Part shown: positions 43,888 through 50,390 of the stretch, piece after piece
How positions within the stretch are numbered: the first letter of the stretch is position 1
Layout: every line of letters starts with the position of its first letter
Assembly (NCBI GenBank): GCA_020381345.1
Contig: GCA_020381345.1_3636.1
Direction: 5' to 3' (one strand)
Length of the DNA stretch: 64,000 bases
DNA from: a phage
The notes under the pieces: generated by a model
Told to the model about the DNA's origin: nothing
Seen by the model: the letters and a program-made list of their open reading frames with translations, nothing else
The model's database searches: none
Made by a program: the position numbers and the translations under genes

Positions 43888-44652
43888 TTGAAATTTATCT
43901 ATAAAGAACACTACCACAAAGGTGTTGTGTGGAGTCTATTTGACGGATCTGGCGGTGCAGTCATTGACTGGGCAAAAGCTGGATATCTGTGCCTGTGCTT
44001 TAACGCAGAAGGTGCTGACCACGGCAGTTATGCAGAGGTGATCACCGATCATCCAAATATTCACTATGTAGATTATTGGATTGATCCATGGTTCCCTCAG
44101 GAAACTTTCTGCATGTACCCAGCTCCGGACTTTGTTCTTGCATTTCCTCCGTGCACCCACTTAGCGGTGTCAGGTGCTGCACACTTTAAGAAGAAGCTGG
44201 CTAAGGACCCGCTGATCCAGATTAATGCTGTAAAGGATGCTCGGGTTGCAGAAGAGTTGGGAGAGATTTACGATTGCCCGTGGCATGTAGAGAATCCTGT
44301 GGGTGTTATGTCCACACTGTGGCGCAAACCTGATTACCGTTTTCACCCTTCTGACTATGGCGGGTATTTACCGGAGGATGATGTAAACCCCTGGTTTCCT
44401 GAATTTATAGCTCCACGTGATGCCTATCCAAAAATAACTTGCGGCTGGATAGGTAATGGATTTATAATCCCGGCCACAAAACCTGTCCCGCAAATAGTTG
44501 ACGCGGTTAGCGGGTATTCCATGCAACACGCCAAGCTGGGTGGAAAGAGTGCAAGAACGAAGATGATCCGAAGCCTCACACCACGTGGCTGGGCAAAAGC
44601 CGTATTCTTAGCAAACGAGCCTGTAGTAAGGAGCAGAATTAATGGGAAGTAA
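43888..44652 (+). CDS. compact DNA cytosine-5 methyltransferase-like protein
   Basis: Motif I LFDGSGG (FxGxGG), motif IV FPPCTHLAVSGA (PC), motif VI HVENPVG (ENV); TTG start after GGAGA RBS proposed because the track start lies inside the terminator hairpin; only ~255 aa so target-recognition region is minimal. Confidence 0.45.
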   Translation: MKFIYKEHYHKGVVWSLFDGSGGAVIDWAKAGYLCLCFNAEGADHGSYAEVITDHPNIHYVDYWIDPWFPQETFCMYPAPDFVLAFPPCTHLAVSGAAHFKKKLAKDPLIQINAVKDARVAEELGEIYDCPWHVENPVGVMSTLWRKPDYRFHPSDYGGYLPEDDVNPWFPEFIAPRDAYPKITCGWIGNGFIIPATKPVPQIVDAVSGYSMQHAKLGGKSARTKMIRSLTPRGWAKAVFLANEPVVRSRINGK

Positions 44653-46720
44653 ATTTATGGCATCTGCATACAACCGTTTCGGTGAGCCAAACCCGAAAGC
44701 AACTAAGTATAAAAGTGGGGGAAGTGTGAAACGAGACTATCGTGATGAAAAAGAGGTTGAAACTGTAGAGACTGTTTTAGAAAATACTAAAATTGTCCCT
44801 GTTCCACAACAAAATATCGGTCTGATGGCTGCACAATATTTTGGTGTGCGATCAGCATTGTCTCAAGAAGACGGTGTGACAGTTACTGCAACATATTTCC
44901 CATATTACGACCGCTACGGAAATCTGTCAGGTTTCAAAAAGCGTGACTGGACGATTCCTAAAGAGCAAAGGGGCCATTTCTCAGTTGTTGGCATAGTAAA
45001 GGCTAACTCCCAGATGTTTGGTCAAAAGCTGTGTGCATCTTCCAACAACCGTAAGCAGATTAATGTTTGTGAGGGAGAAGGTGATGTTATTGCAGCATGG
45101 CAGGCTGCATATCAGATACAAGTAAAAGGGATTCTCACCAACGCTAAAGCCCCGGCAAAGGTGAAACAGTGGGCTAAAGAGGTCCAGGACGGGATCGATG
45201 CAGTTATCAACGGGGGTGATCTGGCAGGAAAACCCTGCCTGCCTTTTGTTGGAATTAACTGTGGATGTGCAAACGCAGTAGACACTTTTGCAAACAATGA
45301 GAAATTTATCCGTAGCTACGGAACAGTGGTCCTTGCAATGGACAACGATGCAGCTAACGAGGTAGAGAAGCAAAAACACGTTATCAAAGGTGTTGAAGCC
45401 ACACATAATATCGCGGCATTTTTGATGGCGGATAACGTTTACCACGTAGAATATCCTGGTGAAGTAAACGATCCTGACGGTGTAAAAGATATCCGTGACA
45501 TGCTGAAGGCTAAAAAGCTGGAAGATATTGTAAACATGTTCCGGCATCCTGTTAAGTATGTGCCTGATGCTGTGTCGGATTTAGAAGACTTCTCTATCGA
45601 ATCTTTGCGGAAAAAGACTTCCAACGGGGTAGATATTAGCGCAGAGTTCCCAAAACTGCAAAAAATGCTAAAAGGCTTGCACAAAGGGACACTCGTAATG
45701 CTTACAGGTCCATCAGGGGGTGGTAAAACAACTGTAGCTAAAAAACTGGAACACTGTATTGCAAGATACTTAATGGACCCGACATGCCCGAAGGCCGATG
45801 ACTACGAAGAAGATGATCGTCTATGCATGATCCATCTTGAGGAGGACCCAGAGGAAGCAATTAACTCCTTGTATGCAAACCAGTTAGGGTTTGATGTTAA
45901 AGAGTTTGTTGAAGATCCTAGCCAGTTTTTAACTGATCAAGAACACGCAGAGATTCACCAATCATGGGCAAAAGCTGGAAAAATCAAAGTGTTCAAACAT
46001 TTCGGATCTATTCCGGTGGACGAGTTGATTACCAAGCTTAAGCAAATGGTTTGCCTGTACCATTGTCGTTATATTGTGCTGGATCACCTGTCCATGGTAA
46101 TTTCAGGTCTTAATGTTAAGGATGAGCGAAAAGAACTGGACATAGCTATGACCCAACTGGCTGCGTTTTGTAAGCAGTTTAATGTGTTTATCTTGGTGAT
46201 CGCTCACCTCAAACGTACAGAGATTGTGCCTCCTAAAGACAAGGATGGTAACCCGTTACCTTTCTGGTATCCTGTGCGAAAAGAGAATTTGCGAGGATCG
46301 GCTGGGCTTGAACAGTTGAGTTGGGTAGTCATAGGTGTCGAGGCCGAAGAAATGGTGGATCGTTCTCGTGGGCGTGTCCGTTTAGTAGGTCTTAAAAACC
46401 GTCCAGCAAAAACATTGGGTATTGCAGACACTTTGGTTATGGACCCACATACAGGTAAGTTCCATGATGCCAGTAATTGGTACTGGGACAAAGAAATGCA
46501 AATGTTTACAGATGGAGAAGGTGGGGAGGTTGTTTGGAGACCTCAGGCTATGTTTGAGGATCAGGAGCATGCAGTTGTAGAAACACCTATGGGCAAGGTT
46601 GTGGCTGATAAGGTTGTAACTCCTACTGTTAAGCCTGTTGACACGCAGGAAGACCTCCAGTACGATGATCCGTCCTCTGACCATGTTCCTGGTTTTGAGG
46701 ATGATGAAACACCTTTTTAA
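44642..46720 (+). CDS. bifunctional TOPRIM primase / DnaB-type helicase (T7 gp4-like) lacking N-terminal zinc ribbon
   Basis: TOPRIM Glu (VCEGEGDVIA) and DxD (LAMDNDAANE); Walker A LTGPSGGGKTT; acidic C-terminal tail ending FEDDETPF. Confidence 0.7.
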   Translation: MGSKFMASAYNRFGEPNPKATKYKSGGSVKRDYRDEKEVETVETVLENTKIVPVPQQNIGLMAAQYFGVRSALSQEDGVTVTATYFPYYDRYGNLSGFKKRDWTIPKEQRGHFSVVGIVKANSQMFGQKLCASSNNRKQINVCEGEGDVIAAWQAAYQIQVKGILTNAKAPAKVKQWAKEVQDGIDAVINGGDLAGKPCLPFVGINCGCANAVDTFANNEKFIRSYGTVVLAMDNDAANEVEKQKHVIKGVEATHNIAAFLMADNVYHVEYPGEVNDPDGVKDIRDMLKAKKLEDIVNMFRHPVKYVPDAVSDLEDFSIESLRKKTSNGVDISAEFPKLQKMLKGLHKGTLVMLTGPSGGGKTTVAKKLEHCIARYLMDPTCPKADDYEEDDRLCMIHLEEDPEEAINSLYANQLGFDVKEFVEDPSQFLTDQEHAEIHQSWAKAGKIKVFKHFGSIPVDELITKLKQMVCLYHCRYIVLDHLSMVISGLNVKDERKELDIAMTQLAAFCKQFNVFILVIAHLKRTEIVPPKDKDGNPLPFWYPVRKENLRGSAGLEQLSWVVIGVEAEEMVDRSRGRVRLVGLKNRPAKTLGIADTLVMDPHTGKFHDASNWYWDKEMQMFTDGEGGEVVWRPQAMFEDQEHAVVETPMGKVVADKVVTPTVKPVDTQEDLQYDDPSSDHVPGFEDDETPF

Positions 46721-46778
46721 TGTTTAACAAAGAGTGGGAGGGGTAGTACAACCGCCTCCCCTTTAAGGAGAACTGTAT

Positions 46779-49202
46779 ATGAGCATGTGGTCGTTCGATT
46801 TTGAGTCATCCGGTTTACTGGAAGACCCAGATCTTTATTATCACTGCGGTCTGTTTAAAGAGCTGAATAAGAACCGTTTTATGCTGTTCCTTCCTCTAAA
46901 TGACCGCACACACTACTCCGAGGAGGATATAGAAAAGGCTAAGAACTTCATTCTGGCAAAGAAAACTCTTTATAAAGATTTTGAAGTTCGCATAGCAGAT
47001 TTTTCGGAGTTGGAAGGTTGGCTTACAGGCAATTCCGACTGGTCACCAACAGCTTTGAACTGCCATAACTGCTACAGTTATGACTTTATGCTGATGGAAA
47101 GATTATCCGGTATTCATTTTGACATGTTCCGTGATCCTAAATGCATGGGGACTATCAACGACCACCAGGTTAACCTGTTTGATACGTTGGCGATGAGTCG
47201 AATCTTGTGGCCTGATCGCCCTTTACCAAAAGGTTGTCCGGACTCTGTATTCAACCCGGTCACTAAGAAAATGCAGCCTGTTGGTCCTCACGGCCTTATG
47301 GCATGGGGCTATGCTCTTGGTAACCAGAAAGTTCAAATTGATGACTGGCGCGATCTTCCGTTGTGGAAGTATGTGGATCGTGTATTTGAGGACGTTATCA
47401 TCCAGGAGCTGCTCTGGAAAGAACTGGTAGCGGAATCAAAAGGTGTATTCTACGGCAAGTCTGACATGCAGAACTTTATGTACGATCCTGCCAAAGAGAA
47501 GCCAAAAGGGTTCAAGAAGATCACCTGGAAGAACGCATTACGCCGAGGCATGCTGCAGCACTTCCTGATGGAGCTGCAGGCCCGTCAGGGTGTGTATTTC
47601 GACATAGACGGGGCTATTGCTTTACGTGACCGCTGTGATGCGTGGATGAAAGAGATCGCTGATCGTGTTGAACCTCAACTTCCTTTAAAAGAGTTATCAA
47701 TATCTCAGCGGCCTAAATTCCCTGAAAAGCCGTTCAACCAAGATGGGACAATTTCCAATAATGGCTGGAAATGGTTAAAAGATAAGCTTGGCTATCCTGT
47801 AGATATGAGCGCTTTAGAGTTCAAAGCCCCGCCTAAGCGAGCATTTACCTCCACAGGAGATGTCAGTAAGATGGGGATAAAATGGTGTGAAGAGATGGGC
47901 TGCAAAGACCCCGATAAGATGGCTGATTTCTTGAGAGGCTATATTAAGGGCACCTCAACACCACAACCTTTACCTAAAGAGCTAATGGATCAGGCAATAA
48001 GTGATCTACAGCAGAAGCGAATGCCGGACTGCAAGATACCTATGAAAATCAGCAATCAGGACGACATTAAGCGATACCTGATCAGTGCTGGTTGGCTTCC
48101 GACAATGTGGAGAACTAAGGATGTAACTAAAGACAGCAAGAAGAAAGCTCTACCTGATGCAGATGTTGATGCACGAGTATATGCATATATGGACGAGCTT
48201 TTAGAGTCAGAGTATTGTGACCTGATTATCAACTTCTGGAACAAAACTGATGCTAAGTTCCAGACAACCGTGCACAAGTTCCGAAGCTTTCCTAACTCCG
48301 AAAGGATTAAAAAGGAAGTATTCGGGAAAATACGTAGAAAAGCCAGGGCACTTATTACTTCTCCGCAACTGAAAGATACGTTTGGACACCTATGTCCGAA
48401 TCTTGAAAAATTGAACGGAGAGATGGCTAAAGATATCGTCTTGTGGTTATCATTGCGAAACCGCAGATCGGTCCTTGATCCAATCAAGGAGGATAAGGTT
48501 GATACTGGTCTTCTTAATCACCCACGCTTGAAGATTGACCATAAGCTTCCTGCTAAAAGTTCTGGGCTAACAAACACTTCCAGACAGAAACACAGTATTT
48601 GTGCAAACATGCCTAAACCATCTCCTAAAGTGGTTATGGGTAAAGAGATGCGTAGTCTATGGGGTGTTCCTCCGGGATACTTTGAGATCGGTATTGACGG
48701 GTCCAACTTAGAGCAGCTTATCGGAGCTTGGGGTGCCTTTGAGTTCGACAACGGCTTGTATTATGATGTTGTAAGTAACGGGGACGCACACCAAAACAAT
48801 GCTGAGGCATATACAAAAGTAGCAGGTAGAGAGGTGTCTCGTAACGACGGTAAACCTATCACGTATGGGGTTATGTACGGGGCACAAAAAGATAAAGTTG
48901 CAGACATGCTGGATATCTCTCCAGAGTTGGGACAAAGGGTAATCGATGCACTCTGGGATGCCAACCCTGGTCTTAAGGGGCGCAAAGAGGATCTGGAGAA
49001 ATTCTGGGAAGCAACAGGTAAGAAGTTTATCTACTCTTTTGATGGTCATGCTATCTGGACCCGATCTAAACACTCTTTACTTAATGCATACCAACAGAAT
49101 GGTGGTGCATCGCTGTGTGACTTAGTTGGGATACTCATGCACCACCAAATGGTGAAGCGTGGGTGGTACGATGAAGGTGTTCGTCGTATTATTTATTACC
49201 AT
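46779..49202 (+). CDS. DNA polymerase, family A (T7 gp5-like), exon 1
   Basis: Exo I FDFESSG, Exo II-like NCHNCYSYD, motif A EIGIDGSNLE, motif B KPITYGVMYGAQ; ORF stops 1 codon after the His of motif C (..IIYYH K stop). Confidence 0.7.
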
Positions 49203-49478
49203 AAATAACATTGTGGCTTCATAGAGTAATCTATGTCGAATAACCTCTTTAACTGCGGGAAGCCTAAACCTTATGGCAAGGTAATCCGCAACGAAGCGCT
49301 CAAAAGAGCGAACGCTCAGAGGCCATTCCGAAAGGAAGTAGACCAGCAAGTGCGGTCGAAATGGGAGGATTCCTGTGGTTGCTTATCATAGGAATATGAG
49401 ATGGTCCGATCCTACGTGAAAACGTATGGCTATGCACGTAATGGTGCGGGGTAGCTTAACGACCTACCTGAACTATTG
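49203..49478 (+). ncRNA. group I self-splicing intron (no ORF) interrupting DNA polymerase motif C
   Basis: P-like AACTGCGGGAAG (49251), Q-like AATCCGCAAC (49283), R-like GCTCAGAGGCC (49314) in canonical order; P/Q complementary; upstream exon ends in T, intron ends in G; three in-frame stops; joining exons restores ..YYHDEYQLQV (H-D-E motif C). Confidence 0.6.
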
Positions 49479-49832
49479 GATGAGTACCAACTTCAGGTCC
49501 CTGACACACCTAAGTATAAGACTGTGTACACCTTCGACACAATTGAAGAACTGGAAGCATTTAAGGCAGAGCAGGAAGCCAAACTTCATGTGTTCGACGG
49601 TCATAAGTACAAAAAGGCACGCAAGGATGAAAACGGAAACGAGGTGGTTGACAGAGACGGAAACACGGTGTACGATCCTATCCTGAACGATGACGGAAAG
49701 CTTGAACTTATCTGGAGCCCTGTGGGCGAGATGGTGGTACATTGCTTCTGGCAAGCTTCTAAAATGATGGGAGTCCCGTTCCAGATCACAGGTGAATACT
49801 TGTGTGGTCGTAACTGGGGTGATTGTCACTAA
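49479..49832 (+). CDS. DNA polymerase, family A, exon 2 (C-terminal segment)
   Basis: Same frame as exon 1; begins GAT GAG (D-E of HDE); C-terminus ..CGRNWGDCH resembles T7 pol C-terminus ..GPNWAICH. Confidence 0.6.
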   Translation, partial: DEYQLQVPDTPKYKTVYTFDTIEELEAFKAEQEAKLHVFDGHKYKKARKDENGNEVVDRDGNTVYDPILNDDGKLELIWSPVGEMVVHCFWQASKMMGVPFQITGEYLCGRNWGDCH

Positions 49833-49881
49833 TGTAAACTATCAGCACAGGGAGGTGCTGTTGAGCAAAGAGGAGACTTTT

Positions 49882-50166
49882 ATGGTAGTAGAGCCAACAA
49901 AAACATTTACATCCATGACCATTCCTGTTATTATGCAGGTGGAGTGTGTTCAGGTATCTCAAGTGTGGCCTGGCACCAAAATCCCAACAGGGCCTGATTT
50001 CTTTCAGGTTGGGAAAGTGTACAATGTCTGGAAGGCACCAGATTGTTACCCTTTCATTAAAGATGACCGTGGGATGCTGTGGTATCTTGGAAATGACTTG
50101 ACACTGCACCTTGGGAATGCTATTATTGCAGTATTCAGACTTAACAAGAAGGAGACCGATCAATGA
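49882..50166 (+). CDS. small protein, member of tandem paralog family (KDD.G..W motif)
   Basis: AAGAGGAG RBS; motif FFQVGKVYNV ... PFIKDDRGMLWYL. Confidence 0.4.
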   Translation: MVVEPTKTFTSMTIPVIMQVECVQVSQVWPGTKIPTGPDFFQVGKVYNVWKAPDCYPFIKDDRGMLWYLGNDLTLHLGNAIIAVFRLNKKETDQ

Positions 50167-50390
50167 CAACTTTGGTTAAAGCTACTTTTGTAGAAGAAAA
50201 GATGACAGACCTGTCCTTCTTTAAAGAAGGAAAGACCTACGAGGTTTATTACGATAAAAATCGTGCAAACAAGATGATTAAAGACGAGGAAGGGATTGCC
50301 TGGTTTATCTCCCATCTGGCAAACGGTGAGTATCATATCTACGGAACCGCCCTGCTTGCCAAGTTTGTAGCTGTTGAAGAGGGCCTATGA
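50163..50390 (+). CDS. small protein, paralog family member
   Basis: AAGGAGA RBS; FFKEGKTYEV ... MIKDEEGIAWFI. Confidence 0.4.
   Translation: MTTLVKATFVEEKMTDLSFFKEGKTYEVYYDKNRANKMIKDEEGIAWFISHLANGEYHIYGTALLAKFVAVEEGL

Follow-up and report, generated by a model that had tools for sequence, protein, structure and literature searches.

An ORF-less IA2 group I intron, very probably self-splicing, at motif C of the family-A DNA polymerase gene of an rV5-like phage

Positions 49203-49478 of the window (the whole stretch of 64,000 nucleotides that was analysed) very probably form a self-splicing group I intron (subgroup IA2) within the pre-mRNA for the essential family-A DNA polymerase. The region 48600-49900 shows 98% identity to phages PDX and V5/rV5, and the phage of the window is an rV5-like coliphage of the genus Vequintavirus. 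A preliminary description, made by reading the letters of this DNA, had proposed that a group I intron without an ORF splits motif C of a T7-like polymerase between H and DE, and that an annotation as two separate genes would be wrong. As detailed below, the intron identity, the absence of an ORF and the place of the split were all supported, and public records do list two polymerase genes.

The primase-helicase gene (44642-46720) precedes the polymerase ORF, whose ATG is preceded by an AAGGAG Shine-Dalgarno sequence. Translation of this ORF (46779-49208) ends with ...RRIIYYHK and a TAA stop at 49206-49208. This is one codon past the histidine of motif C (His808, codon CAT, 49200-49202), in agreement with the preliminary description. 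After a gap of 276 nt (3 x 92), the downstream part opens at 49479 with GAT GAG, its frame unchanged, and runs through 117 codons that end with NWGDCH and a stop codon at 49830-49832, again as described. The 276-nt gap has four in-frame stops, namely the one that terminates the ORF and three more, which are the three that had been counted before. The terminal bases also turned out as announced, since exon 1 ends with U (U49202, the 5' splice-site uridine) and the intron with G (49478). From the translation of both exons, the correct product is predicted to be a polymerase of 925 amino acids encoded by join(46779..49202, 49479..49832). The features are collected in Table 1.

Table 1. Features of the interrupted polymerase gene and of its predicted intron, in window positions
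Feature	Position	Strand	Description and basis
Polymerase exon 1	46779..49202	+	Family-A (T7-like), 808 codons, ends ...RRIIYYH; ORF translation, partial Pfam DNA_pol_A match
Group I intron (predicted), IA2, without ORF	49203..49478	+	276 nt; Rfam RF00028, intron-less allele, covariation, MFE fold
Polymerase exon 2	49479..49832	+	DEYQLQVP...NWGDCH and stop, 117 codons, frame as exon 1
P1 hairpin and P10 strand	49199..49216	+	Rfam alignment; P1 pairs invariant in 11 sequences
P2 hairpin	49220..49235	+	CAUAG/CUAUG; 5/5 pairs with double-sided changes in relatives, 100% of cells paired
Catalytic core, with P, Q, R and S elements	49244..49406	+	Rfam alignment, helix assignment, covariation
P3	49244-49249 / 49363-49368	+	Core
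P4 (P/Q elements)	49254-49259 / 49285-49290	+	Core
P5	49262-49265 / 49279-49282	+	Core
P6 and P6a	49292-49314	+	Core; P6a is a 14-nt hairpin
P7 (R/S elements)	49321-49325 / 49402-49406	+	Core; pseudoknotted with P3
P7.1-GUA-P7.2	49326..49357	+	UUCC-GAAA-GGAA, GUA linker 49338-49340, GACC...GGUC
P8	49370-49377 / 49387-49394	+	Core
3' domain	49411..49478	+	P9 49411-49429 with GAAA tetraloop; P9.1 49434-49447; P9.2 49450-49468; ωG 49478
52-aa ORF inside intron	49233..49391	+	gp222 in the rV5 RefSeq record; overlaps P2-P8; no Pfam match

The exact boundaries are given by alleles that lack the insertion. Intron-less sisters read contiguously ...TATTACCAT/GATGAGTAC... (here and below, the slash marks the insertion point), and only the boundaries 49203-49478 reproduce that sequence. 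At the DNA level, the joined exons are the same as the uninterrupted allele of phage JohannBauhin from -21 to +71 (...TATTACCATGATGAGTAC...), and the match is lost if either boundary is moved by a single base. Ligated exons would encode the junction peptide ...IIYYHDEYQLQVPDTPK, which is found contiguous, with 99-100% identity, in JohannBauhin, nimi, slur16, Pr121LW and others. When compared by phmmer with T7 gp5 structures (6n7w, 2ajq, 1skr; E 1.4e-13, spliced product only), 'IYYHDEYQL' aligned with 'AWVHDEIQV' of T7 gp5, which contains H653-D654-E655. Because the alignment with T7 gp5 and the intron-less alleles both place the junction there, the intron is assigned to the boundary His808/Asp809, after the histidine of motif C and before its catalytic Asp-Glu (H653/D654-E655 in T7 gp5), where the preliminary description had put it. 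The acidic residues of motif C are catalytic in family-A polymerases, and an unspliced exon-1 product would lack them.

The covariance-model search that had been suggested as a check was run, and Rfam family RF00028 matched positions 49193-49428 with 64.7 bits (E 4e-14), above its gathering score of 50 bits and over model positions 1-253 of 253. Even at E <= 0.05, no other Rfam family was found in the whole 64-kb window, and a sensitive Rfam scan together with a tRNA scan of the same DNA gave nothing beyond the group I intron. The P-, Q- and R-like elements of the preliminary description were recovered in the order in which it had listed them. In the Rfam alignment, AACTGCGGGAAG (49251-49262) is the 5' strand of P4 (P), AATCCGCAAC (49283-49292) its 3' strand (Q) and GCTCAGAGGCC (49314-49324) the 5' strand of P7 (R). 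P1 is formed by CCAU/AA (49199-49204) and the internal guide sequence UUGUGG (49211-49216), with a U49202·G49213 wobble that marks the 5' splice site, and exon-2 GAUG (49479-49482) has the potential to form a 4-bp P10 with CAUU (49209-49212). Introns of subgroup IA2 are recognised by two extra helices, P7.1 and P7.2, which a G-U-A linker connects in the stretch from P7 to P3 (PMC3428280), and by its P7.1-GUA-P7.2 the intron of the window is assigned to IA2. An MFE fold of 49195-49486, computed without structural input (z = -2.58), found 12 helices (P1, P2, P3, P4, P5, P6a, P7.1, P7.2, P8, P9, P9.1 and P9.2) and missed P6 and the pseudoknotted P7. Counting against the reading as a self-splicing intron, P5 of the window copy is short, P7 contains a G·U pair and a U is bulged out of P9. 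A promoter and terminator scan of 46500-50300 yielded nothing above shuffle expectation, and a terminator-like match on the minus strand inside the intron was discarded, as it is the P7.2 hairpin.

The structure was also evaluated by covariation in an alignment (A1) of 11 intron cores, made with MAFFT without structure input and with a mean column identity of 70%. Phages phiTE and CB7 were omitted, since the P4-P6 region around their HNH insertion could not be confidently delimited. In the structure derived from the window, 96.2% of cells pair versus 35-40% when the 3' partners were slid by 1-3 columns, and changes on both sides occur in 34 of 71 pairs versus 1-11 in the slid controls, which retain the relatedness of the sequences; the tested structure came from a member of the alignment itself, and the comparison with its slid versions is biased in its favour, but double changes are numerous all the same. 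The covariation score was 0.401 compared with 0.172 for shuffles, which ignore phylogeny, and none of the 500 shuffles reached the observed values. Compensatory changes were found in every pair of P2, in several pairs each of P3, P6a, P7.2, P8, P9 and P9.2, and also in P9.1. In P7, the window has C-G where most copies have U-A, a change that is compensated on both strands and common to SSE121. All six P1 pairs are invariant in the 11 sequences, including the U·G wobble at the splice site (11/11), as are the GUA linker in alignment A1 and the terminal G (ωG) in all copies. This pattern indicates that the structure of the intron is under selection.

By standard group I chemistry, the guide sequence UUGUGG of the window copy would pair with CCAU at the end of exon 1 to give P1, with the U·G pair at the splice site, and free guanosine bound in P7 would attack after U49202. 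P10 (exon-2 GAUG with CAUU) and G49478 would next align the 3' splice site for exon ligation, which would restore ...Tyr-Tyr-His/Asp-Glu-Tyr... and, with it, motif C with its catalytic acidic residues in the 925-aa polymerase. On an unspliced transcript, translation would end one codon past His808, and the product would be devoid of the catalytic Asp-Glu.

Other explanations of the interruption were considered. That the gap is an ordinary spacer between two unrelated genes, with a chance resemblance to an intron, has a practically negligible probability. The existing two-gene annotation is all that speaks for it, and it is refuted by the E value of the Rfam match, by the exact colinearity with uninterrupted homologues and by the covariation. 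It is also very unlikely that the polymerase is a split enzyme made without splicing, its two exons being translated separately and assembled into an active enzyme, although public records list two CDSs, an in-frame TTG is present at 49476, one codon before exon 2, and a non-spliced split enzyme is known as a precedent in NrdA of Aeromonas phage Aeh1, divided by the insertion of mobE (PMC7344957). The break falls within a single motif, between the histidine and the catalytic Asp-Glu. Moreover, TTG 49476, the sole in-frame start for exon 2, is without a Shine-Dalgarno sequence ahead of it and lies in a region occupied by P9.2 and P10, and separate translation would leave a complete ribozyme core with 34 compensated pairs without a reason for its conservation. 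The homologous intron in the polymerase gene of CB7 does splice, as demonstrated by RT-PCR on RNA from infected cells and cDNA sequencing (PMC7344957).

We also regard as very unlikely a crippled or factor-dependent intron, that is, one that self-splices poorly, needs a host or phage protein, or throttles the polymerase by partial splicing. The window copy is the most reduced of the Vequintavirinae copies examined and obtained the lowest Rfam score among the ORF-less copies scored (64.7 versus 72-91 bits). It has no P5 extension, its P7.1 region is shorter than in JLBYU08, JEP1 and 19-1-2, and P7 contains the G·U pair, all of which would fit an impaired ribozyme. However, the core helices are all intact, the change in P7 is compensated on both strands and the GAAA tetraloop of L9 has been kept. 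In addition, a copy at least 99% identical is present in 23 phage records, and the intron is therefore compatible with viability. A self-splicing intron remains our preferred reading of the window copy.

Related introns are located at the same H/DE site in the Vequintavirus phages JLBYU08, JEP1 and rV5_ev146 (FV3-type), Avunavirus 19-1-2, Certrevirus phiTE, CB7 and CR9, Seunavirus SSE121 and PVP-SE1, phage A5-4, and the Vibrio phages K412, 10AMN and qdvp001. Pseudomonas Pakpunavirus SPA01 (L015 789-1580) has a full relative of the intron at AYH/DEAQ in a polymerase that is only ~25% identical. The site is polymorphic for presence and absence, as JohannBauhin, nimi and slur16 are intron-less where close relatives are occupied. 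At 276 nt, the window copy is the shortest in the Vequintavirinae, and the Vibrio copies measure 253-254 nt. The lineage has members in the Vequintavirinae, in Vibrio phages and in Pseudomonas Pakpunavirus, and the introns of the T7-like phages ΦI and W31 probably belong to it too. Similarities were also seen at other sites: nrdB of Vibrio phage 1.161.O (L016 ~1480-1584) is split by an intron-like gap that contains the P9-P9.2 3' domain with ~80% identity, and the terminase-gene intron of Av-05 (L018) and Vequintavirus has 73% identity to the 5' core.

The relatives differ in the endonuclease genes that they carry, whose products match Pfam HNH_3 or LAGLIDADG_2. An HNH gene of 163-172 aa lies in the P6 loop of the rV5_ev146/FV3-type, CR9, SSE121 and A5-4 introns, and SPA01 carries a homologous 154-aa HNH of the CR9 type. 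A different HNH of 127 aa is found in the P6 region of phiTE and CB7, and a LAGLIDADG gene in the P7.1/P7.2 region of PVP-SE1. JLBYU08 and JEP1 have ORF-less FV3-type introns with a small P6a hairpin in place of the HNH gene. At about positions 100-155 of the phiTE and CB7 introns we observed a near-consensus sigma-70-like TTGACA-17-TATGAT and, just before the HNH ORF, a GGGAGGA Shine-Dalgarno sequence, which suggests that expression of their endonuclease does not depend on the polymerase transcript.

No homing endonuclease was detected in the window intron, whose sole internal ORF, of 52 aa, has no Pfam match; since none is carried, the window copy would not be autonomously mobile. This small ORF is most likely spurious. 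It overlaps P2-P8, and the record of JLBYU08, a different ORF-less intron variant and the one other such record checked, has no CDS in the gap, so that the intron can be called ORF-less as the preliminary description had it. By Pfam, no endonuclease was found in the four ORFs downstream of the polymerase gene in the window. The ORF that follows the polymerase (49792-50166) begins at a GTG that overlaps exon 2 and is without a Pfam domain; the 94-aa CDS (285 nt) of JohannBauhin suggests that the real start of this gene is an ATG near 49882.

Between alleles, the exon sequences beside the junction show synonymous differences that are clustered (in JLBYU08 at +5, +8, +11, +17, +20 and +32), a pattern that would be expected from gene conversion during homing. 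We envisage a lineage that is always inserted at H/DE in very different polymerases and that would gain and lose endonuclease genes (two HNH types, one LAGLIDADG) in its P6 and P7.1/P7.2 loops. Tentatively, an ORF-less intron, instead of being a mere relic, might be retained because it shields H/DE from the HNH and LAGLIDADG endonucleases of co-circulating relatives, and it might itself be copied in trans into intron-less alleles in mixed infections, a form of collaborative homing; we consider this possible rather than likely. If it were true, H/DE would be a natural system for studying the cycle of intron and endonuclease gain and loss, because intron-less, ORF-less and HNH-bearing alleles coexist in one genus, synonymous changes beside the junction are mosaic, three different endonuclease genes sit in separate loops of a single ribozyme lineage and at least three unrelated phage groups carry the intron. 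ORF-less phage introns with neighbouring free-standing homing endonucleases have reportedly been described under the name of collaborative homing. The window resembles these systems in that its intron is ORF-less while related alleles of the site are intron-less or endonuclease-bearing, and the arrangement in phage 241Ecol014PP is similar as well, but, unlike them, the window has four ORFs following the polymerase in which no endonuclease domain is present.

In 241Ecol014PP (OR062943.1; L003 5223-5870), which has the same ORF-less rV5-type intron, a free-standing gene with NUMOD4, HNH_3 and HTH domains directly follows exon 2. In K412 (L010 1994-2641), a gene annotated as 'HNH endonuclease' and of the same length as that of 241Ecol014PP also comes after exon 2, without a Pfam match. 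A kinship of these two free-standing genes was rejected (BLASTP E 0.36), and the window has no counterpart of a free-standing endonuclease after exon 2.

The closest system with known splicing is that of CB7, where exon CB7_51 ends with ...IIYYH, exon CB7_49 starts with DEYQLEVP, and a 687-nt intron with the HNH gene CB7_50 lies between them. CB7 and the window share the phage subfamily, an orthologous polymerase and the YYH/DEYQ junction. Their introns are homologous in P1 and the internal guide sequence, P2, P3, P7, P7.1-GUA-P7.2, P8 and P9-P9.2. The identity is only ~75%, across 73% of the length of the window intron, and the CB7 intron bears an HNH gene, which limits its weight as a precedent for the window copy. 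The two differ in that the CB7 intron contains its 127-aa HNH gene in the P6 region, whereas the 276-nt window intron has no ORF and a 14-nt P6a. Motif B of the CB7 polymerase gene is interrupted by a further intron, and the window has none there.

We take His881 of E. coli Pol I to be the motif-C histidine. For the T7-like phages ΦI and W31, the IA2 introns are placed 'at the site 881' by E. coli Pol I numbering, and 'site 674' of the same paper is a Pro/Asn boundary (PMC3428280). Since 'site 674' denotes the boundary between these two residues, 'site 881' would be the position after His881 of H-D-E, and by this convention the insertion in ΦI and W31 is apparently at the same His/Asp boundary (PMC3428280). 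Both cases involve a family-A phage polymerase, subgroup IA2 and, apparently, site 881. They differ in that ΦI and W31 are podoviruses with a 704-aa polymerase and an ORF in the intron, while the window comes from a myovirus with a 925-aa polymerase and an ORF-less intron. The introns of ΦI and W31 are said to encode the HNH endonuclease I-TslI in P6a. An HNH gene in P6a is also the arrangement of the FV3/rV5_ev146-type relatives of the window intron. When the window and 19-1-2 introns were used as queries in blastn, no T7-like phage appeared among the matches listed; beyond the family, other phage introns were matched there in short stretches of the core. The intron of SPO1 gene 31 shows such a short core similarity. 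The intron of Pf-WMP3 is comparable in being IA2, with P7.1-GUA-P7.2 and a 4-bp P10 (PMC3428280), but the introns of its comparison group interrupt the fingers subdomain (Pol I site 674) and not motif C, and all of them encode nicking HNH endonucleases.

In the RefSeq record of the type phage, rV5 (NC_011041.1), where L001 1282-4233 corresponds to window 46779-49832, the polymerase is annotated as two CDSs, gp223 and gp220, with no intron or join. The first of them, gp223, begins at a later ATG and has 775 aa, and the hypothetical CDSs gp222 and gp221 lie within the intron or overlap it. Several of the related records inspected also give the polymerase in pieces, and some call exon 2 'hypothetical protein' or 'Phage protein'. 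In the rV5 genome paper, introns are reported only in the terminase gene and the polymerase is given as gp228, a truncated protein of 775 aa (PMC3606486). The polymerase intron is mentioned neither in that paper (PMC3606486) nor in the database records inspected, and full-text literature searches retrieved no paper describing a polymerase intron of rV5. The kind of element, its subgroup, its host gene and its insertion site are already known from CB7 (PMC7344957) and from ΦI and W31 (PMC3428280). The main value of the present analysis is, accordingly, the correction of the annotation and the comparative view of evolution, with no concept changed. It adds an ORF-less member to an intron lineage that targets motif C of family-A polymerases, and the swapping of endonucleases in the intron loops provides material for studying the evolution of introns and endonucleases and the competition between phages.

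Some further observations were made on the same gene and its relatives. A second intron site is situated in motif B (KPITYG/VMYGAQ), which in the window is residue 697/698 (about 48869/48870). It is occupied in 19-1-2 (L006 1596-2329), phiTE (L007 2620-3332), CB7 (L008 1455-2167) and SSE121 (L013 367-1007 approx.), and uninterrupted in the window, CR9 and A5-4. An ORF is annotated in every one of these motif-B gaps, and Pfam identifies it as HNH in CB7 and SSE121; the gaps of phiTE and SSE121 are covered by Rfam matches. In 241Ecol014PP (L003 1180-4578), JEP1 (L009), YP-6 and EPFV3-03/2025, exon 1 contains an in-frame insertion of 323 aa at His671/Gln672 (window numbering), which is absent in the window. 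The insertion starts with Cys, ends with ...VAVCGN and gives weak matches to Hint_2 (E 8e-4, below cut-off) and to the AceL NrdHF intein (E 1.8e-4); the residue that follows it is Gln, not the Cys, Ser or Thr of a canonical intein. Finally, 16 records of 'Campylobacter phage' (host C. jejuni, MG0656xx) are 95-98% identical across the region to rV5-like phages of E. coli, and the C. jejuni host labels of these records look doubtful, as would result from contamination or mislabelling.
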